This document shows, piece after piece, positions 5,803 through 38,303 of a stretch of DNA of 64,000 nt (position 1 is the stretch's first letter; the number at the start of each line of letters is the position of its first letter). The stretch is from an uncultured Verrucomicrobiota bacterium. GTDB taxonomy: Bacteria; Verrucomicrobiota; Kiritimatiellia; RZYC01. The notes beneath the pieces were generated by a model. It saw only the letters and a program-made list of their open reading frames with translations. It was not told the DNA's origin and made no database searches. Location of the stretch: assembly GCA_964542025.1 (NCBI GenBank), contig CAZISY010000005.1, positions 4,786 through 68,785 on the forward strand, in the 5' to 3' direction. Position numbers and translations under genes: made by a program.

Positions 5803-6279
5803 ATGGCGCGAAGATACGATATACAAGGCACGAATAACTACATCATTGCTGCGTCCGTTTTTCTTCTGATTGGAGCATGGCATTTTATTGATGGATGGTT
5901 CCCGAGGCAATCGGTTCGGGATATTCATCCCAAAGAAGTGGTTGTCAAAGCCTCGGCTGCCGGCGTGGTTGCGAAAATAGAAATTGCGCTTCAACAGGAA
6001 GTTGCTGATGCGGTCCCTCTAATCAGGCTGAAAACCGTTGAAACGCCGGCCAAAGAGATCACGCTGAGTATGCAGGATGAACTGAATCCGAAAGCCAAGG
6101 TGCATAGCGGCGAGGTGGCGGAAATTCATGTTCAGGAGAAAGCTCAAGTCTCTATAGGTCAGCCGTTGGTTACGTTGAAAGCCACGCGCGACAGTTACTA
6201 TCTGTACAACAAGACTACGGCTGTCATCACGTTGCTTGGCGCCCTGATTTGCGGGATCATCCACCGGCTCGTTCGGTAA
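5803..6279 (+). CDS. Hypothetical membrane protein with a biotinyl/lipoyl-like barrel-sandwich segment
   Basis: N- and C-terminal hydrophobic helices. The central SGEVAEIHVQEKAQVSIGQPLVTLKA resembles a lipoyl/HlyD barrel-sandwich hybrid motif. Confidence 0.4.
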   Translation: MARRYDIQGTNNYIIAASVFLLIGAWHFIDGWFPRQSVRDIHPKEVVVKASAAGVVAKIEIALQQEVADAVPLIRLKTVETPAKEITLSMQDELNPKAKVHSGEVAEIHVQEKAQVSIGQPLVTLKATRDSYYLYNKTTAVITLLGALICGIIHRLVR

Positions 6280-6427: not shown

Positions 6428-6781
6428 ATGACCTTGACGAAAAGAGATTTAGTAATGCGCATTTCGGAAGAAACAAATCTCATTCAACAGGATGTCTACG
6501 TCGTGCTCCAGAAATCGTTGGATTACATCATGGAAGCCCTGGCTCGGGGAGAAAATGTGGAGTTTCGCAATTTTGGTGTTTTTGAAGTCCAGGAACGCAA
6601 GGCGCGAATTGGACGTAATCCAAATAAACCCAGTGATGTGGTGACTATTCCGCCGCGGAAAGTGGTGAAGTTCAAATCCGGGAAGGTGATGAAAGATATG
6701 ATCACCTCGCAAAAACCGATCAGCAGCATTCGGCAATCTCCGGTTCCTGATTTCAACGTTGCTGAGTCGGAATCCCTGTAA
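6428..6781 (+). CDS. HU/IHF-family nucleoid-associated DNA-binding protein
   Basis: MTLTKRDLVMRISEETNLIQQDVYVVLQKSLDYIMEALARGENVEFRNFGVFEVQERKARIGRNPNKPSDVVTIPPRKVVKFKSGK has the HU/IHF fold signature (GFG.F, R.GRNP.T). Confidence 0.85.
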   Translation: MTLTKRDLVMRISEETNLIQQDVYVVLQKSLDYIMEALARGENVEFRNFGVFEVQERKARIGRNPNKPSDVVTIPPRKVVKFKSGKVMKDMITSQKPISSIRQSPVPDFNVAESESL

Positions 6782-6860
6782 CGGCCGGCGAGTCGACCGG
6801 CTTGAAAAATCCTCTTGTTTTTTAAGTTAGCGAGTGTGTGATAGTTTTTGGAGAGCGCTT

Positions 6861-8135
6861 ATGCCTTCCGATGATGTTCTGCCTGTAAAGGGCATGTCTG
6901 ATATTTCAAATCCAGAAGTGGCCCTCTGGCAGCAGATTGAAGCGCAGGCGCGGAGCGTGTTTCATTGTTTTGGCCTTTCGGAAATTCGTACGCCTATTCT
7001 GGAGCGGGAAGAATTGTTCATCCACTCGCTGGGCAATACCACGGATGTGGTCCAAAAAGAAATGTTCACGTTGGACTATCAGGGCAAAATGCGGTTGACG
7101 CTGCGGCCGGAGGGAACAGCCGGCGTCATTCGAGCGCTGGCCGGAAGCGGCCCGGATGGACGACAGGCGCGCGTTTATTATATGGGTCCCATGTTCCGGG
7201 CGGAACGACCGCAGGCGGGCCGGCGCAGGCAGTTCCATCAAATCGGTGCGGAGCTGACCGGGGAACCCAATCCTCTGGCTGATGCTGAATGTATTGCCAT
7301 GCAGGCTCAGTTGCTGAAAGCCTGGGGGTTGACGAAGTGTAAGATAAAAATCAATACGCGCGGCACACCGGAAGACCGCAACGTGGTTGCGGAAGGCTTG
7401 AGGAATGCCTTGAGCCCGTATCTTCCAATGCTTTGCGAAGATTGTCAAAGGCGCTACACGCAGAATGTATTGCGTGTATTGGATTGTAAAAATCCGAACT
7501 GCGGCAAGGTGGTGGATGGGTTGCCCCCCGTGACGTCGTTTATGACAGAGGCCTCGCGTAACTATTTTCAGCAGGTGATGGACACCCTCAAATACCTGAA
7601 TTTGGATATTGAGGAAACCCCGCGTTTGGTGCGCGGATTGGATTATTATGTGCATACCGTGTGGGAAATTGCTCATCCGGGACTTGGTGCGCAGGATGCG
7701 CTTTCGGGCGGTGGCCGTTATCAAATTATGACAAACGGGAAACCCCTGGATGGCGTGGGCTTTGCGCTGGGGATGGAGCGGGTGATTGCGGCGCTGGGTT
7801 CCGAAGGGATTCGTCCGGAAGATGTGGTGAATTACCCCAGGGCATGGCTGGTTTCCCTCGGTGAGGCGGCGCTCAAAGAGAATCTGATTTTGGCGCTTAC
7901 GCTGCGCCAGCGGAATGTCTCGTGCGGCATGGATCTCAACGGCCGAAGCATGAAGGCTCAGATGCGGGAAGCCGGAAAAGCCAATGCCTGTTATGTGATT
8001 ATTCGGGGCGATACGGAAATGGAAAACGGCGTCTTTCAAGTGAAAAAAATGGCGACCGCGGAGCAGCAGGAAATGGCGCTTCCTGAACTGATGAAACTTC
8101 TGTTGCCCGATATAGCGCCCCGTGAAGGGGTGTGA
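6861..8135 (+). CDS. hisS: Histidine--tRNA ligase (class II)
   Basis: Motifs GMSDI...ALWQ, RYYMGPMFRAERPQAGRRRQFHQIG and GGGRYQIMTNGKPLDGVGFALGMERV. The start at 6861 has a GGAGAG SD; the longer 6834 start is less likely. Confidence 0.9.
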   Translation: MPSDDVLPVKGMSDISNPEVALWQQIEAQARSVFHCFGLSEIRTPILEREELFIHSLGNTTDVVQKEMFTLDYQGKMRLTLRPEGTAGVIRALAGSGPDGRQARVYYMGPMFRAERPQAGRRRQFHQIGAELTGEPNPLADAECIAMQAQLLKAWGLTKCKIKINTRGTPEDRNVVAEGLRNALSPYLPMLCEDCQRRYTQNVLRVLDCKNPNCGKVVDGLPPVTSFMTEASRNYFQQVMDTLKYLNLDIEETPRLVRGLDYYVHTVWEIAHPGLGAQDALSGGGRYQIMTNGKPLDGVGFALGMERVIAALGSEGIRPEDVVNYPRAWLVSLGEAALKENLILALTLRQRNVSCGMDLNGRSMKAQMREAGKANACYVIIRGDTEMENGVFQVKKMATAEQQEMALPELMKLLLPDIAPREGV

Positions 8136-8193: not shown

Positions 8194-8709
8194 ATGAAAA
8201 TTGCCGTGGCCGCAATGGGTGACACCTTGGAGGATCAGGTTGCTTTTCGTATGGGGCGCAATGCGTACTACCTGATTGTGGACACGGAATCCATGGAAGT
8301 GGAGCCCATAGAAAATCCGGATAAAATCGCCGGGTTTGAAGCCAGTGATGTGAGTGCCGGCCTGATGGCGGATCGGGGCGTTCAGGTGGTGCTGGCGGGG
8401 CATTGCGGACCGGAAGCGCACAAAATTTTCGGAGCGGTGCGCATTGCCGTTCTGCCGGGCATCACGGGGTCGGTGAGTGAGCTGGTACACGAGCTGCAGC
8501 AGGATTCTGAATGGTCGCGTCTGATCGCTACGGCATTAGAACCGTTTCCAGCCGATGGTGGAACTCCGACGCTCAAAAAGACAAAAGAAAAGCGGGCTGT
8601 GGTAGGCTATGAGGATCTCCTGCAGATGAAGGCGGAGATGGTGGTTATGCAGCGGAAGCTGCTGGAACTGCACCGGCGCGTCGCGGAGCTGGAGAAATCC
8701 AATGGCTGA
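8194..8709 (+). CDS. NifX/NifB-like dinitrogenase FeMo-cofactor-binding domain protein (MTH1175-like) with a C-terminal coiled-coil tail
   Basis: MKIAVAAMGDTLEDQVAFRMGRNAYYLIVDTESMEVEPIENP...ASDVSAGLMADRGVQVVLAGHCGPEAHKIFGAVRIAV matches the Nitro_FeMo-Co family pattern. The SD is GGGAGA. Confidence 0.6.
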   Translation: MKIAVAAMGDTLEDQVAFRMGRNAYYLIVDTESMEVEPIENPDKIAGFEASDVSAGLMADRGVQVVLAGHCGPEAHKIFGAVRIAVLPGITGSVSELVHELQQDSEWSRLIATALEPFPADGGTPTLKKTKEKRAVVGYEDLLQMKAEMVVMQRKLLELHRRVAELEKSNG

Positions 8710-9664
8710 ATACCGGTACCTGTTTGGTCCGGTGCCCTCGCGCCGCCTCGGGCGATCATTGGGCGTTGATTTGATTCCTTTTAAAACCTGTACGTTCAAC
8801 TGCGTCTATTGTCAGTTGGGACGCACACCCCATGTAACCCTGGAGCGTAAAGCCTATGTGCCGATTGAAGCGGTGCTGGGTGAATTGGCGGACTGGAAGA
8901 GCGCAGGCGGCCAGGCTGATGTGGTCACACTGGCCGGCTCGGGCGAGCCTACGCTGCACACGGAATTTGGACGTGTATTGGTCTGCGCGCGCGAAGAACT
9001 CCATTTGCCTTCGGTACTGCTGACGAATGGAACGCTGCTTCATCTGGAGGATGTCTGCGACCAGGCGTCTCGGGCGGATATTGTAAAAGTCACGCTCAGT
9101 GCCTGGGATGATGGTTCGCTGCAGACCTTGCACCACCCTCATTTATCCATTCGTTTTCGGGATATTTATGAGGGAGAGAAAAAGCTTCGGCACCGGATGA
9201 AGGGGCAGTTTTGGGTGGAGGTGTTTCTCGTGGGGGGTGTAAATACAGATCCGTATTCGCTCGCGGTATTGAGTCGCCTGGTGAAGGAATTGCATCCAGA
9301 CCGCATTCATGTCAATACGGCGGTGAGGCCGGCCGCCGAACGGGATGTGACAGCCGTTACACATGAAGTGTTGGAAAAAGCAGCCAATATACTGGGTCCC
9401 GCGGCGGAGATTGTTGCATCAACCGTCATAACCGAAACGTCAAGTGAAGGAATCACGGTTGAGGCAGTCTACCGATTGATTGAACGGCATCCCTGTTCCG
9501 CGCAGGATTTGGAGTGTGTGTTTAATGCCTCATCAGAGCCGGTGGAGGAGTGTCTGAACGAACTGCTGCAGGTCGGGCGGATTATTCGAGTTGAGCGCGG
9601 TAATACCGTGTATTACGGACTTCCGACGCTGAATGGGGAACGTTTTTGCGGGGAGCGGAGTTGA
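8702..9664 (+). CDS. Radical SAM enzyme (COG0731-like Fe-S oxidoreductase)
   Basis: CTFNCVYCQLG is the CxxxCxxC motif, preceded by the FGPVPSRRLGRSLGVDL motif typical of this rSAM subfamily. It overlaps the upstream gene by 8 nt. Confidence 0.75.
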   Translation: MAEYRYLFGPVPSRRLGRSLGVDLIPFKTCTFNCVYCQLGRTPHVTLERKAYVPIEAVLGELADWKSAGGQADVVTLAGSGEPTLHTEFGRVLVCAREELHLPSVLLTNGTLLHLEDVCDQASRADIVKVTLSAWDDGSLQTLHHPHLSIRFRDIYEGEKKLRHRMKGQFWVEVFLVGGVNTDPYSLAVLSRLVKELHPDRIHVNTAVRPAAERDVTAVTHEVLEKAANILGPAAEIVASTVITETSSEGITVEAVYRLIERHPCSAQDLECVFNASSEPVEECLNELLQVGRIIRVERGNTVYYGLPTLNGERFCGERS

Positions 9665-10677
9665 TGAATCGAAACACATGGATACTGGGGGTGGATATCG
9701 GCGGGACAAAAACGGCCGTTTGTTTGGGCCATCGCGACGGGACGATTCCTCATGAACTCCGGATGCCGTCCTGTCCGGAACGTGGCCCCGAGGACTGGTT
9801 GGAACGATGCCGAACGCTGATTTTCCAGTTGTTGGAAAAAGCGGGTGTGAGCCTGGATGAAATCGCTATAACGGGGATTTCAGCGCCGGGGCCACTTTCT
9901 GCGAAAGCGGGCACTCTGCTCAATGCGCCAAACATGACCGGCTGGGAAGAAGTACCGGTGGTGGACATGTTTCAACGATTCATTCCGAGTCCGATCATCA
10001 TGAACAATGATGCCAACGCCGCCGCTCTTGCGGAGTGGATGTTCGGTACCTATCGGGGCGCTGATGGGCTGATCTATCTGACGATGAGCACCGGTCTGGG
10101 GGCGGGGATTATCGCCAACGGCCGGCTCCTTCAGGGTGTTACGGATACCGCCGGTGAAGTGGGGTATCATGTGCTGGATTTGAATGGCCCGCAGTCGCCA
10201 TGCGGTCACCGCGGAAGTTTTGAGGCTTTTTGCGGCGGGAAAAACATGGCCGACCAATTGAGAGAACGGTTGGCCCGCGACCGCATATCTACGCGCATAC
10301 TGGATCATGCGGGCGGCGATTTGAGTCGAGTCGATTTTCGGTGCTTGGCGGAAGCCGTGCGCGAAAAGGATGCGTTTGCCGGTGAGGTGTGGGAGCACTA
10401 TCTGCTTAGGCTTGGACAGGGGATTGGCAATCTGATTATGATTCTTAACCCGCAGGTGATCATGCTGGGGACGATTGGTATTCATGCGGCAGATATTTTG
10501 CTCGAGCCGCTCAAAAATTTATTACCGCGGTTTGTGTTGAAACCGGCATTGGATGCCTGTGTGATTGAGCCTAGTTCTCTGGGTAGTCGAATCGGGAATC
10601 TGGCGGCGGTTGCGCTTGCGGTGGAGTCATTGGAAAAAGAAATAAACGACGGAGATGGGATTATATGGAACGCATAA
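9664..10677 (+). CDS. ROK-family sugar kinase (glucokinase/NagK-like, no HTH)
   Basis: ILGVDIGGTKTAV phosphate-1 motif, the NDANAAALAE motif, and a ROK Zn motif (CGHRGSFEAFCGG). The ATG overlaps the rSAM stop (TGATG). Confidence 0.7.
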   Translation: MNRNTWILGVDIGGTKTAVCLGHRDGTIPHELRMPSCPERGPEDWLERCRTLIFQLLEKAGVSLDEIAITGISAPGPLSAKAGTLLNAPNMTGWEEVPVVDMFQRFIPSPIIMNNDANAAALAEWMFGTYRGADGLIYLTMSTGLGAGIIANGRLLQGVTDTAGEVGYHVLDLNGPQSPCGHRGSFEAFCGGKNMADQLRERLARDRISTRILDHAGGDLSRVDFRCLAEAVREKDAFAGEVWEHYLLRLGQGIGNLIMILNPQVIMLGTIGIHAADILLEPLKNLLPRFVLKPALDACVIEPSSLGSRIGNLAAVALAVESLEKEINDGDGIIWNA

Positions 10678-11078
10678 AAAAACACTTTAAAGAACATGAC
10701 CTGTTTGCCGCGCACAACGGCATTGAACTCATTGAAATCCGGGAAGGATATGCGATGGCCCGCATGCCTGTGAAGCCCTTTCATCAGAACGGTGCAGGGA
10801 TTGTTCACGGCGCCGCGATCTTCACGCTGGGCGATCTGGCGTTTGCCGCCGCCTCCAATTCGAGGGGATCCGTGGCTGTTGGAATTAACGTGAGCATTTC
10901 CTACATGAAAGCGGCCGCGTCTGGCGTATTGTGTGCAGAAGCCGTCGAAGAAATCACCAGCAACAGGTTGGGTCAATACACCGTCCGCATTACGGAAGAG
11001 ACCGGCGGATTGATCGCCCTCATGAGCGGTATGGTGTATCGGAAAAAGGAGCCGTTGGTGGCGGATGAGGAGTCCTGA
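10665..11078 (+). CDS. PaaI/YbgC-type hotdog-fold thioesterase
   Basis: GIVHGAAIFTLGDLAFAAASNS is a hotdog thioesterase (4HBT) motif. It overlaps the ROK gene end by 13 nt. Confidence 0.7.
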   Translation: MERIKKHFKEHDLFAAHNGIELIEIREGYAMARMPVKPFHQNGAGIVHGAAIFTLGDLAFAAASNSRGSVAVGINVSISYMKAAASGVLCAEAVEEITSNRLGQYTVRITEETGGLIALMSGMVYRKKEPLVADEES

Positions 11079-11106
11079 CTCCATGCGCTGAAAACCGGCG
11101 CACGAG

Positions 11107-12036
11107 TTATTTTTCTTCTCGGAAGTAGGGGTGTCCCATTTCGGCAGGGCCCAGGCTGCCGCGTGATTTGCGGATGGATGACACCACCAGAATGAAAATG
11201 GTGACCAGATACGGCAGCATGTCGATGACGTATTGAGAAATGGGGATGTTGAATCGCTGCAATCGGAAGCCGATGATATCGAGACCGCCGAAAAGATAGG
11301 CGCCCAGAAAAACCATCCACGGATTCCATTTGCAGAAGATGACCAGCGCAATGGCGATCCATCCGCGTCCGGCGGTGATATTATCCTGCCAGGCCGGAAC
11401 GTCCACGAGTGAAAGGTAGGCCCCGCCCAGGCCGCAGAGTATGCCGCCCAGTATCACATGGATGTATTGATAGAGAGTGACCCGTATGCCGGCGGCATCG
11501 GCGGCCGCCGTATTTTCGCCCACCGCGCGCAGATGAAGTCCGCATCGGGTGTGATACAGATAAATAGAGCCGAAAATTACAGCGGCGTAGCCGCCGTAGA
11601 CCAACCGGTCGCGACAGAAAAAGACGGGGCCCAGAAAGGGAATTTCGCACAGCAACGGGAGCGGGTAGGGTTGAAAGAATTGTTTCATGTTTTCAGGGAG
11701 CGCCATCCCCACAAGGTCTTTCCCGATGAAGCTTGAAAAGCCCATGCCGAAAATGGTGAGCGCCAGGCCGGTGACCACCTGATTGGCCCGCAGGCTGATG
11801 GTCAGCAAGCCGAAGATCAGCGCCCCAAGCCCGCCGGAGAGCATGGCAGCCAGCAGCGCCAGGGATACGCTGGATGTGTGCATGCCGACCTGGAAGCCGA
11901 TCACGGCGCCCATCAGCATCATGCCTTCGAGTCCAAGATTCAATTTTCCGCTTCGCTCGACGAAAATTTCACCCAGCACCGCAAAAAGCAATGGAGTTCC
12001 CGCCACGATAGCCGCCACCAGCAGATCACTCAGCAT
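11107..12036 (-). CDS. ABC transporter permease (BMP/nucleoside-type, second permease)
   Basis: Multi-TM protein with a conserved ABC type-2 permease architecture. It lies in an operon with the ATPase and the BMP lipoprotein. Confidence 0.8.
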   Translation of the reverse strand: MLSDLLVAAIVAGTPLLFAVLGEIFVERSGKLNLGLEGMMLMGAVIGFQVGMHTSSVSLALLAAMLSGGLGALIFGLLTISLRANQVVTGLALTIFGMGFSSFIGKDLVGMALPENMKQFFQPYPLPLLCEIPFLGPVFFCRDRLVYGGYAAVIFGSIYLYHTRCGLHLRAVGENTAAADAAGIRVTLYQYIHVILGGILCGLGGAYLSLVDVPAWQDNITAGRGWIAIALVIFCKWNPWMVFLGAYLFGGLDIIGFRLQRFNIPISQYVIDMLPYLVTIFILVVSSIRKSRGSLGPAEMGHPYFREEK

Positions 12037-16732: not shown

Positions 16733-16807
16733 TGGCTCCGGCGACAGGGCTCGAACCTGTAACATCCTGGTTAACAGCCAAGCGCTCTACCATTGAGCTA
16801 CGCCGGA
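16733..16807 (-). tRNA. tRNA-Asn (anticodon GTT)
   Basis: Reverse complement TCCGGCG-TA-GCTC-AATGGTA-GAGC-G-CTTGG-CTGTTAA-CCAGG-ATGTT-ACAGG-TTCGAGC-CCTGT-CGCCGGA-G-CCA folds as a 75-nt cloverleaf. The T-loop is TTCGAGC, the anticodon loop is CTGTTAA, and CCA is encoded. Confidence 0.9.
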
Positions 16808-37019: not shown

Positions 37020-37964
37020 TCAGCGGACAAGGTAAATCATTTTCTTGAGTACATTGTCTCGTTCAACGTCCAGTACAATAGCACTTAGACGATTGTTGAC
37101 AAATTCTTTTAAAAAATACTCCCCCCGCGTCTGACTGGTCATGTTCATGGAGTTCACTTTGCGAATGCGATCCCCCTGTTCCAGTCCCATTTCTTTAAAA
37201 AAAGTTTTTTCACCAACCATATCCAACTCATAACCTGTTATTTTTTTGTCAGGATTGTAATCCGGCTTAAGCGAGATGTATATCGAAGCAAGTCGCTCGG
37301 GATCATCCAGTAGCTCGGAATAGTAATCCATCAACACTTTCCGGTTAAGAATCCACCGATTTTCACCGATTTGTTTGGCCATAAAGGACGCATCCTTCCC
37401 TTGTTCCGTTTCGTTTCGTTCGGAAGAACCGAATGGGGTTCCCCCTTCCGCACGATCATGAAAAGCAATCAGAAGAACTCGCTCCTCGTCCCCTTTTTTC
37501 AGTCGAATGCGATCCCGGTCGATACTGACAACCTGATACTCCTGGAGAAACATTTGCTCCTGCAGAACAAGTTGTTCACCTGTTTGCAGGTGATCAATGA
37601 TGGCCGCTCTGATCACATGACCGTTTCGATGATCACCGGAAAAAAAAGTGCCTGCCAAGCGATACAAAGCGTCTAGCTGGTTGTCCGACGTTGTTATGGG
37701 TTGCCCTAAAGATTTCAATGGAGACCATATGAAACGTACGGTATCTGTGGCACCATAATCAGAATGCAATTCGCACGATTGCATGCTGGATGACGGGGCG
37801 GATATCGAGTGAGACACTCGTCTGGACCAAAGCCCTCCATACAGCAGGCCGGCCGATAATAAGGCCAGTACAAGCAGTACCTGAATTTTGTTACGAATGA
37901 CTCTGTTCATGATGAAAAAAAAGGCGAAAGGACTTGTAAGCCGGATTTTGTATCGTTTTTTCAA
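37020..37964 (-). CDS. Hypothetical membrane-anchored protein with a C-terminal PDZ-like segment (GspC/PilP-like?)
   Basis: N-terminal TM (IQVLLVLALLSAGLLYGG). The C-terminus has a PDZ-like pattern. No confident family assignment. Confidence 0.4.
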   Translation of the reverse strand: MKKRYKIRLTSPFAFFFIMNRVIRNKIQVLLVLALLSAGLLYGGLWSRRVSHSISAPSSSMQSCELHSDYGATDTVRFIWSPLKSLGQPITTSDNQLDALYRLAGTFFSGDHRNGHVIRAAIIDHLQTGEQLVLQEQMFLQEYQVVSIDRDRIRLKKGDEERVLLIAFHDRAEGGTPFGSSERNETEQGKDASFMAKQIGENRWILNRKVLMDYYSELLDDPERLASIYISLKPDYNPDKKITGYELDMVGEKTFFKEMGLEQGDRIRKVNSMNMTSQTRGEYFLKEFVNNRLSAIVLDVERDNVLKKMIYLVR

Positions 37965-38303
37965 ACGATCCTGGTCATTTATCTAATGCGATCAACCCGG
38001 AACTTTTCCGGTTTTTACACCGGATTGAAGCGGGCCGCTTCTTGTTCCCTATTTGATCTTGCTCCGGATGGGGTTTGCCCTGCCCCCGCCATTACTGTCG
38101 GGGCGGTGGTCTCTTACACCACCATTTCACCCTTATCCCGTTACCGGGACGGTATATTTTCTGTGGCACTTTCCATCTCACACGTTATGACATGTGAGTC
38201 CCAGGCTTTCACCGGGGCATCCTGCCCTATGGAGTCCGGACTTTCCTCTCCGCAACCAGCGGTTGCGCAGCGACCAAGCCATCCTTTCGCCATTTAATCG
38301 TTT
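37964..38303 (-). ncRNA. rnpB: RNase P RNA (bacterial type A), rnpB
   Basis: The minus strand carries GGAGAGGAAAGUCCGGACUCCAUAGGGCAGGAUGCC (the P4 region), AUAAGGGUGAAAUGGUGGUGUAAGAGACCACC, and CCAUCCGGAGCAAGAUCAAAUAGGGAACA...AGUUCCGGGUUGAUCG, matching the conserved RNase P RNA cores. The ends are approximate. Confidence 0.85.

Follow-up and report, generated by a model that had tools for sequence, protein, structure and literature searches.

A NifX-like protein and an uncharacterized radical SAM enzyme are encoded by a gene pair conserved across anaerobic bacteria

Introduction

We show herein that genes for a NifX-like carrier and a radical SAM enzyme form a pair that is conserved across anaerobic bacteria, mostly in "orange protein" (orp)-type Fe-S gene clusters. 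The pair was studied in a stretch of 64,000 nucleotides (nt) from an uncultured Verrucomicrobiota bacterium of the Kiritimatiellia, referred to below as the window, where it is followed by genes for a ROK kinase and a hotdog thioesterase. On balance we lean, if only slightly, toward reading the four genes as two separate modules, that is, a NifX-radical SAM pair for Fe-S or metallocluster handling and a kinase and a thioesterase that are passengers.

The orp gene set comprises a NifX-like orange protein (ORP), an Mrp/NBP35-NifX protein and two CbiA+Fer4 ATPases under sigma54/OrpR control (PMC6345978, PMC8359166), and its role in anaerobes is still called unclear (PMC8359166). NifX-like proteins of solved structure bind metal-sulfur species, as exemplified by ORP (2wfb) and by IssA, which binds thioferrate (PMC5524996). 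[quoted passage not shown] A radical SAM gene is unmentioned in the ORP papers (PMC6345978, PMC8359166), and literature searches found no description of the present radical SAM family or of its link to NifX or orp genes, nor any experiment or described family tying the enzyme to a substrate.

Results

Organization of the four genes

The genes and the sites around them are listed below (positions in the window).

6428-6781, plus strand: HU, upstream housekeeping gene (Pfam)
6834-8135 (start uncertain), plus strand: histidyl-tRNA synthetase (HisRS), upstream housekeeping gene (Pfam)
8194-8709, plus strand: ORF1, NifX-like protein, 171 aa
8194-8535, plus strand: NifX fold of ORF1, about residues 1-114 (AF2 secondary structure)
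Residues 117-137 of ORF1, plus strand: disordered linker (AF2 model)
8608-8700, plus strand: C-terminal helix of ORF1, residues 139-169 (AF2 model)
8702-9664, plus strand: ORF2, radical SAM enzyme, 320 aa
8789-8812, plus strand: CxxxCxxC cluster motif of ORF2, C30/C34/C37
Within ORF2, plus strand: SAM motif GSGEPTLH
9449-9634, plus strand: C-terminal winged helix of ORF2, about residues 250-311
9664-10677, plus strand: ORF3, ROK protein, 337 aa from the ATG (longest possible start, TTG at 9646)
10665-11078, plus strand: ORF4, hotdog thioesterase, 137 aa
11084-11102, plus strand: terminator-like hairpin, 6 nt past the ORF4 stop (consensus scan)

As the initial annotation had stated, all four co-directional ORFs overlap at their junctions: by 8 nt between ORF1 and ORF2 (8702/8709; ATGGCTGA), by 1 nt in the TGATG at 9662-9666 between ORF2 and ORF3, and by 13 nt between ORF3 and ORF4 (10665/10677). 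A GGAG-type Shine-Dalgarno element can be read 5-15 nt before every one of the four starts, and the same four genes were returned when genes were called independently on a Logan contig of identical sequence. The genes thus constitute a tightly packed run that is probably co-transcribed. The further claim that the overlaps imply stoichiometric co-expression could not be upheld. Overlaps indicate tight packing and probable co-transcription, and 12 of the 39 same-strand neighbor pairs in the window overlap while 11 more lie 0-30 nt apart, according to a crude gene call whose longest-ORF starts somewhat inflate the overlap count. Because overlaps are this common, three in succession are ordinary for the genome.

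HU and HisRS are co-directional with ORF1, and the promoter scan found no sigma70-like site in the 58-nt gap between HisRS and ORF1. The hairpin at 11084-11102 sits between ORF4 and a convergent ABC permease gene (11107-12036, minus strand) and probably marks the 3' end of the transcript, although it provides weak evidence, because the promoter and terminator scan of the region yielded no more sites than shuffled sequence did. Rfam disclosed no riboswitch near the four genes.

The NifX-like protein and its tail

All four domain assignments of the initial annotation (PF02579, PF04055, PF00480 and PF03061) scored above their cut-offs. ORF1 belongs to the Nitro_FeMo-Co/NifX-like family (PF02579, IPR003731; 45.6 bits against a cut-off of 26.3, E 9e-12). 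By sequence, it matched MTH1175 (2.5e-8) and Desulfovibrio gigas ORP (2wfb; 2.3e-6) in the PDB, along with TM1290-like 1rdu and PH0822. The AF2 model, whose pLDDT is moderate (69.7 overall), alternates beta and alpha elements over residues 1-114 and ends in a tail made of a short disordered linker and one amphipathic, strongly conserved helix. ORF1 is best read as a protein of the ORP/IssA/MTH1175 type, small and non-enzymatic, whose cargo would be an anionic Fe-S or heterometal-sulfide species.

The tail had previously been described as an unusual coiled coil. Its helical nature is borne out by the model, as a single C-terminal helix, but it is not unusual: next to members of this radical SAM family, NifX domains repeatedly carry a Gly-rich linker and then a helix of the DUF5320 type. 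For example, in a Desulfobacterales locus (L020) that encodes three NifX paralogues, the DUF5320-fused paralogue is 47% identical to the NifX domain of ORF1, another is 34% identical, and the third gave no tblastn match. The orthologous paralogue itself has a sub-threshold DUF5320 match (E 3.6e-4). Pfam DUF5320 (PF17253) found nothing significant in the ORF1 tail alone, and hhalign aligned the tails of the window clade with standalone DUF5320 over 30 C-terminal columns (E 3e-4, with a probability of only 38%); the N-terminal DUF5320 motif MPxxDxTGP...C and the Gly-rich middle are absent from the window ORF1. The helix of ORF1 occupies the place that the DUF5320 tail has in orthologous NifX proteins, and the two may be homologous. 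In the window clade the Gly/Arg-rich linker is gone, and so is one of two Cys residues that the Desulfobacterota orthologues conserve (RFGRC to RMGRN), so the cargo of the window protein may differ. A word-indexed search for ORF1 homologues returned 10 proteins, among which P0250 (40% identity, Gly-rich tail) was the only bridge toward the origin of the tail.

The radical SAM enzyme

ORF2 is a member of the radical SAM superfamily (PF04055; 47.0 bits against 29.5), with a CxxxCxxC motif, a Gly-rich SAM-binding motif and a partial TIM-barrel core. Its N-terminus reads MAEYRYLFGPVPSRRLGRSLGVDLIPFKTCTFNCVYCQ, and its C-terminal extension is an ArsR/SmtB-like winged helix. The COG0731-type assignment made earlier agrees with the JGI name of its homologues, "wyosine synthetase (radical SAM superfamily)". 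A search of 72 homologues for SPASM or auxiliary-cluster Cys residues found none, only the three Cys of the radical SAM cluster being invariant. ORF2 is best regarded as a single-[4Fe-4S] enzyme of an uncharacterized COG0731-type family, which comprises 755 clusters at 50% identity.

The proviso that the enzyme might fall into a well-characterized family such as PflA or NrdG did not apply, as every NCBIfam match was far below its cut-off and no PDB match was better than generic. Glycyl-radical activases were rejected on this ground (TIGR02493, 25.6 against 231.75 bits; TIGR02495, 18.6 against 131.15), and no glycyl radical enzyme gene occurs in the neighborhoods examined; even so, the core most resembles PFL-AE in fold. 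NifB was likewise rejected, with no NifB model match at E<=0.01 and no extra ligands in the family. Prokaryotic viperin (pVip), which has a nucleotide-binding C-terminal extension, scored 24.2 against 180 bits (NF038283), and the C-terminus of ORF2 is a winged helix; a role in defense was discarded as well, PADLOC having returned only a weak pVip similarity of 32 bits.

An alternative that deserves consideration is that the enzyme modifies RNA, DNA or nucleotides in the manner of TYW1, RlmN or viperin, guided by its winged helix, and that the role of the NifX-like protein is confined to supplying or repairing the [4Fe-4S] cluster, a service that recalls the in vitro activity of IssA. The wyosine synthetase name, the weak sequence matches to TYW1, viperin and pVip, the presence of viperin, RlmN and TYW1 among the top structural matches, and the many invariant Arg residues of the family all favor it. 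Nucleotides or nucleic acids are also suggested as substrates by the winged helix and by the rare proteins in which the radical SAM enzyme is fused to a class-I methyltransferase or to the nucleotide pyrophosphatase Maf. However, the TYW1 score is 18.3 against 317.95 bits (TIGR03972), no further invariant Cys is available for the second TYW1 cluster, and winged helices also mediate protein-protein contacts. The neighbors, too, are mostly orp-type Fe-S genes, RNA-modification genes recurring only as a minor TsaA/TrmO-like cluster identified by eye (6 of 84 loci). We therefore consider this alternative unlikely.

Linkage of NifX-like and radical SAM genes

Linkage was assessed in 80 species-level radical SAM loci from PVC bacteria, Desulfobacterota and one Methanosarcinales MAG. 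NifX-like or DUF5320 domains were encoded within 6 kb of the radical SAM gene at 41 loci, and within 400 nt on the same strand at 26. The NifX matches fell off with distance, numbering 30, 9, 8, 1, 3 and 2 in successive 1-kb bins. Unbiased clustering of neighbors gave NifX as the top real partner (43/84 loci), followed by PAS/sigma54-type regulators (24/84). About half of the loci, some of them on truncated contigs, have no NifX or DUF5320 gene within 6 kb, and the linkage is therefore facultative. The two domains are occasionally fused in one protein (P0116 and P0251), and the junction between the two genes is tight in every member of the window clade (-11, 0, -4 and -8 nt).

Two loci illustrate the wider context. 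The Desulfobacterales locus L020 reads DUF134 - NifX - Mrp/NBP35 - NifX - radical SAM - NifX::DUF5320 - two CbiA+Fer4 ATPases, a layout that covers the orp gene set except for a regulator of the OrpR type; regulator genes are found at other loci. In the cultured Pontiella sulfatireligans the order is Rrf2 - radical SAM - HD - DUF134 - DUF5320 - Fer4. No nitrogenase or nif genes were seen in the neighborhoods examined.

The ROK kinase and the thioesterase

ORF3 is a ROK protein (PF00480; 178.8 bits against 22.9, E 2e-52) that scored below the cut-off of the ROK glucokinase subfamily (TIGR00744; 145.2 against 260.35). Its best PDB matches are glucokinases (2qm1, 3vgk and 3vov), and it is best read as a glucokinase-like sugar kinase. 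ORF4 matched 4HBT (PF03061; 41.0 bits against 20.6) and the hotdog thioesterase domain (TIGR00369; 71.6 against 36.6) and fell short of PaaI proper (TIGR02286; 91.9 against 118.9). Its best PDB matches are PaaI proteins, no paa genes or operon lie near it, and it is a PaaI-like thioesterase of the hotdog fold.

The initial annotation had combined the four proteins into a single pathway. In a pathway of this kind the kinase would activate a sugar-like substrate, the radical SAM enzyme rearrange it, the thioesterase release an acyl intermediate, and the NifX-like protein carry a cofactor. The overlapping junctions suit such a scheme, and sugar-acting radical SAM enzymes do exist, DesII and BlsE being among the structural matches. 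The block is also kept in the relatives L002, L003/L012 and L094, the last of which is more distant (50% identity for the radical SAM enzyme, 69% for ROK) and has all four genes between flanks that differ on both sides; in L096, ROK and an orthologous 4HBT gene are again adjacent. Nonetheless, the block did not survive a survey of gene neighborhoods beyond this narrow Kiritimatiellia clade. Only 1 of the 80 loci has ROK or 4HBT near the radical SAM gene, which Pontiella, Tichowtungia and several MAGs among the other Kiritimatiellota carry without either, and orthologues of ROK (64% and 54% identical) occur in unrelated contexts. Even within the clade L092 is without the thioesterase, and in the relatives 3-62 nt separate the genes at the ROK and 4HBT junctions, with no overlap. 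In L096 the adjacency comes without the radical SAM gene, and ROK and 4HBT are not co-transcribed, because they are convergent. Finally, L002 and L003, the closest relatives, also conserve the upstream HU-HisS genes in the same order; their ROK, 4HBT, HisRS and HU are 78-85% identical, so that a shared gene order is to be expected, and ROK and 4HBT have diverged in step with the adjacent housekeeping genes, the radical SAM enzyme being 61% identical. Overlapping junctions, too, are commonplace in the window. A single four-protein pathway is improbable, although some functional tie of ROK and 4HBT with the first two genes may exist, given the L094 block and the L096 adjacency. Peptide deformylase, which adjoins the module in L094 and L008, was rejected as a wider partner, as it does so in only 3 lineages.

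Discussion

Under the two-module reading, ORF1 and ORF2 (8194-9664) would be a reduced version of an anaerobe-specific orp-type gene cluster, and ORF3 and ORF4 (9664-11078) ordinary metabolic genes that became neighbors of it in one Kiritimatiellia lineage. The NifX-like protein may present or receive a metal-sulfur species, or dock through its helix in a presumed physical interaction with the radical SAM enzyme, whose 5'-deoxyadenosyl radical could modify the NifX cargo or a partner. The logic would be akin to that of NifB, a radical SAM domain with a NifX domain, minus the extra cluster sites of NifB. It counts against this reading that the family lacks further conserved Cys residues by which a substrate cluster could be bound, as it is in NifB.

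A bolder version holds that the NifX-like protein and the winged-helix radical SAM enzyme make up a widespread, unrecognized two-component system of anaerobes that contains the missing orp catalyst and performs NifB-like metal-sulfur chemistry outside nitrogen fixation, the window representing its minimal form. We offer it tentatively and think the chances are against it. We give very little credence to an activase or maturase that post-translationally modifies a NifX::DUF5320-type protein or another Orp component, as no glycyl-radical enzyme or RiPP-like precursor lies nearby, the PFL-AE score is far below cut-off, and the window clade does not have the Gly-rich region that could be the substrate in Desulfobacterota orthologues.

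No enzyme with an obvious chemistry has so far been tied to orp clusters in the literature consulted. The radical SAM family, a frequent neighbor of these clusters that is sometimes fused to NifX, provides a concrete catalytic candidate. The window clade has a minimal version of two genes, and Pontiella sulfatireligans and Desulfosarcina variabilis are hosts available in culture. As to the four-gene run, overlapping junctions and an attractive set of domains did not mean a four-enzyme pathway.

Comparison with known systems

The best solved relatives of ORF3 and ORF4 are ROK glucokinases and PaaI thioesterases, yet both proteins score below the equivalog or subfamily cut-offs. The wyosine enzymes (TYW1/COG0731) differ from the ORF2 family, which has no second cluster motif, is bacterial in distribution and has orp-type neighbors.

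NifB consists of a radical SAM domain and a C-terminal NifX-like domain, whereas here NifX is N-terminal or a separate protein. NifB also has K1/K2 substrate-cluster ligands that have no counterpart among the invariant Cys of the ORF2 family, and ORF2, unlike NifB, ends in a winged helix. What the two share is a NifX-like partner, adjacent in the window and fused in P0116 and P0251.

The thioferrate storage proteins IssA and "IssX" (Pyrococcus furiosus PF2025; PMC5524996) resemble ORF1 in having an IPR003731/NifX-like globular domain and then a C-terminal tail. The Desulfobacterota orthologues come closer still, with cationic Gly/Arg/Met-rich tails and GMGRG-type repeats. The tail of the window ORF1, in contrast, has no Gly-rich repeats and places the protein outside the IssA type, and no radical SAM partner has been reported for IssA.

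The orp clusters are the nearest known system. As described, the Desulfovibrio orp operons (Orp3, Orp4, Orp5, Orp8/ORP, Orp9/MrpORP and OrpR) are without a radical SAM gene, and the window locus is not an orp cluster: the NifX-like gene is all it has of the set, tblastn with orp-type proteins of L020 having found no other orp genes (ATPases, DUF134, OrpR) in the 64 kb. In sequence, ORF1 nevertheless resembles both the C-terminal domain of MrpORP and the ORP of D. gigas (2wfb). Regulator genes of the PAS/sigma54 type are recurrent neighbors of the radical SAM gene, and the orp gene set is restricted to anaerobes. In Desulfobacterales the radical SAM gene sits among those for Mrp/NBP35, CbiA+Fer4 ATPases, NifX paralogues and DUF5320, and the gene set of L020 matches the described Orp3/4/8/9 (PMC6345978).

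Organization of the gene run

An independent gene call on the public contig of identical sequence gave the same four genes as were found in the window, and they are followed by a terminator-like hairpin:

8194-8709, + strand: ORF1, NifX-like protein, 171 aa
8702-9664, + strand: ORF2, radical SAM enzyme (rSAM), 320 aa
9664-10677, + strand: ORF3, ROK kinase, 337 aa counted from ATG
10665-11078, + strand: ORF4, hotdog (4HBT) thioesterase, 137 aa
11084-11102: terminator-like hairpin, 3' of ORF4 and ahead of a convergent ABC-transporter operon

The overlapping junctions are present exactly as the initial annotation had them, with 8 nt shared by ORF1 and ORF2 (ATGGCTGA), 1 nt by ORF2 and ORF3 (TGATG at 9662-9666), and 13 nt by ORF3 and ORF4; GGAG, a Shine-Dalgarno-like sequence, precedes every one of the four starts. 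Its four domain assignments were borne out as well, since the Pfam matches to Nitro_FeMo-Co, Radical_SAM, ROK and 4HBT (ORF1-4, respectively) each exceeded the gathering score. The overlaps, which it had read as implying stoichiometric co-expression, are ordinary here: 12 of 39 same-strand neighbor pairs in the window overlap, and 11 further pairs lie within 30 nt, as judged from a crude gene call. On the 5' side of ORF1, the same strand carries genes for a pseudouridine synthase, a small unknown ORF, HU, and histidyl-tRNA synthetase (HisRS), the last separated from ORF1 by only 58 nt. The small ORF (5803-6279, + strand, 158 aa), between the pseudouridine synthase and HU genes, is hydrophobic at both its N- and C-terminus and has only sub-threshold similarity to biotin-lipoyl/HlyD-like proteins.

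Elsewhere in the window, a bacterial class A RNase P RNA gene (37921-38289, - strand, 247.8 bits) lies within a stretch of lower GC (about 45-47% at 34-40 kb) in which the remaining genes have housekeeping roles (RecJ, glycogen synthase, and a CT398-like protein). A mechanically called ORF (37020-37964, 314 aa, no Pfam match) overlaps the 3' part of the RNA gene; the ORF may be partly spurious, or its start may be called too far upstream. The only tRNA gene of the window is tRNA-Asn (GTT; 16733-16807, - strand).

Conservation of the four genes in relatives

The order HU-HisRS-NifX-rSAM-ROK-4HBT is kept in the closest relatives, the Kiritimatiellia MAGs L002 and L003/L012, where the rSAM is about 61% identical. 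At 78-85% identity to their window counterparts, the HU, HisRS, ROK, and 4HBT proteins mark these MAGs as close relatives, whose common gene order says little about function. The strongest support for linkage among all four genes comes from L094/L095 (rSAM 50%, ROK 69% identity), in which all four genes are kept with changed flanks, peptide deformylase on the upstream side and pilMN/secretin on the downstream side. Contig L092 (rSAM 59%) has NifX-rSAM-ROK and no thioesterase homologue, an absence to be taken with some caution because the contig appears frameshifted: its ROK gene (1864-2996) is split into calls of 99 and 278 aa, and its NifX-like gene (475-996) has out-of-frame sequence after "KAP" in place of the C-terminal helix.

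Outside this narrow Kiritimatiellia group (the window clade), the four-gene block dissolves. The 80 best rSAM loci in a scan limited to a single genome for each GTDB species include just one (L012) in which ROK and 4HBT adjoin the rSAM gene. In contig L096, a ROK orthologue (57% identity) lies beside a convergent 4HBT orthologue, with NifX and rSAM absent, and ROK orthologues at 64% and 54% identity have entirely different neighbors. The only persistently tight junction is that of NifX and rSAM (-8 nt in the window, -11 in L002, 0 in L003, -4 in L092, and -8 in L094); the rSAM/ROK and ROK/4HBT gaps in relatives are 3-62 nt. ORF3 and ORF4 evolve at the rate of the neighboring housekeeping genes. 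The best solved relatives of ORF3 are glucokinases, and it falls under the TIGR00744 cut-off; ORF4 is PaaI-like and passes a generic hotdog thioesterase model, but it stays below the cut-off of the PaaI equivalog model, and its context holds no paa genes.

Peptide deformylase occurs in the NifX-rSAM gene run of two distant lineages, directly upstream of NifX in L094 (4958-5518) and after a ferredoxin gene in L008 (7191-7691). Because a broader survey showed it in just three lineages, the link is probably a coincidence.

NifX-rSAM pairing across anaerobes

Homologues of the rSAM number in the thousands (755 clusters at E<=1e-30 in a 50%-identity representative library). The best 80 species loci belong to Kiritimatiellota, Verrucomicrobiota, Lentisphaerota, Desulfobacterota, and one Methanosarcinales MAG. 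Using HMMs made from the window proteins and locus ORFs, NifX-like and/or DUF5320 domains were detected within 6 kb of the rSAM in 41 of the 80 loci, and on the same strand within 400 nt in 26. NifX matches fell steeply with distance (30, 9, 8, 1, 3, and 2 per successive kb). Unbiased clustering of all neighboring ORFs likewise placed NifX as the top genuine partner (43/84 non-redundant loci), followed by a cluster of PAS-containing sigma54 activators and histidine kinases (24/84), and then by DUF5320, HD-domain, ARMT1-like, and DUF134 proteins. Two homologues, P0116 and P0251, have an N-terminal NifX-like domain fused to the rSAM. In the cultured Kiritimatiellota species Pontiella sulfatireligans, genes for an Rrf2 regulator, an HD protein, DUF134, DUF5320, and a ferredoxin surround the rSAM; ROK and 4HBT are not among them. 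The Rrf2-family gene (IscR-like, iron/Fe-S-responsive; strain F21, L078 5454-5990) lies directly 5' of the rSAM and abuts its start, which suggests control by Fe-S status in this organism.

Features of ORF2 and ORF1

A check of the rSAM for SPASM or auxiliary-cluster cysteines found none: C30, C34, and C37 are the sole invariant cysteines in 72 homologues, so a SPASM, twitch, or NifB-type auxiliary site is absent. As features of its own, the family conserves an N-terminal beta-hairpin (YLFGPVPSRRxGxSLG), W65, W135, R209-P210, R262, and Y304-Y305. No NCBIfam model came near its cut-off, and PADLOC gave only weak pVip similarity. Two rare fusions occur in the representative library: P0309 (503 aa) ends in a Maf nucleotide pyrophosphatase domain, and P0322 (528 aa) carries a class-I SAM methyltransferase domain. 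They may point to a substrate that is a nucleotide or small molecule, or may reflect gene-call read-through.

The NifX-like domain of ORF1 resembles MTH1175, TM1290-type proteins, D. gigas ORP, and the C-terminal domain of MrpORP. In the AF2 prediction, residues 1-114 adopt a NifX fold and residues 139-169 form one helix, with a disordered linker joining the two. The combination of NifX domain, linker, and C-terminal helix is found in 13 locus ORFs, of which four are the proteins of the window clade. In Desulfobacterota the linker is Gly/Met/Arg-rich, and can be likened to the tails of the IssA/"IssX" thioferrate-storage proteins (PMC5524996); the Gly-rich part is missing from the window clade, where conservation along the protein peaks in the terminal helix (YEDxLQMKAEMVVMQRKLLELHRRVAxLEK). 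Pfam gave no match to the ORF1 tail alone. Aligned with DUF5320 by hhalign, the clade helix scored E 3e-4 and a probability of 38% over 30 in-register C-terminal columns, which is only suggestive of homology.

Throughout the window clade, Asn or Ser (RMGRN; residue 23, window 8260-8265) replaces the first of two Cys that the NifX::DUF5320 proteins of Desulfobacterota conserve (RFGRC), as an alignment of ORF1 homologues shows. The second, in GHCGP (C71), is invariant and kept in the clade. Given the lost Cys and the lost Gly/Arg-rich linker, the cargo or binding mode of the window-clade carrier may have changed.

Discussion

The best-supported reading is one of two modules, ORF1+ORF2 and ORF3+ORF4. 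Persistent adjacency, a tight junction, and occasional fusion indicate that NifX and rSAM work together. The first module would be a reduced orp-type system, in which ORF1 would carry an anionic metal-sulfur species and ORF2, an uncharacterized single-cluster radical SAM enzyme, would work with it. The analogy with NifB, which combines rSAM and NifX domains, suggests radical chemistry on the carrier's cargo or delivered to it.

A nucleotide- or RNA-directed rSAM, or a protein-directed one, is still a live alternative, because extra cluster ligands are absent, a winged helix is present, and Maf/methyltransferase fusions occur. The undescribed four-part rSAM pathway of the initial annotation was largely not upheld, as the block dissolves beyond one Kiritimatiellia clade; a true four-enzyme pathway is improbable, and keeps a small chance because L094 retains the block despite new flanks. 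ORF3 and ORF4 are most simply a metabolic gene pair that became part of this transcription unit in a single Kiritimatiellia lineage.

What is left of the initial proposal is a conserved, unstudied NifX-rSAM pairing tied to orange-protein (orp) clusters. The Desulfobacterales locus L020 reads DUF134 - NifX - Mrp/NBP35 - NifX - rSAM - NifX::DUF5320, followed by two CbiA+Fer4 ATPases, DnaJ, and ArsP_2. Of its three NifX paralogues, the DUF5320-fused one is 47% identical to ORF1, the second 34%, and the third gave no tblastn match. Desulfovibrio orp operons encode Orp3, Orp4, Orp8, and Orp9/MrpORP (PMC6345978), and are under the control of OrpR, a sigma54 activator that has an Fe-S PAS domain (PMC8359166). 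The available ORP papers describe the part played by Orp proteins as unclear and name no partner of the radical SAM type, and no description of the pairing was found in the searchable literature, whose coverage is incomplete. The gene set of L020 matches that of these operons; the difference is the radical SAM gene in the middle of the cluster. The pairing represents NifB-like domain logic in an ORP-type context and, if the rSAM is truly the catalytic component of ORP systems, that would be of greater interest than the pairing alone.
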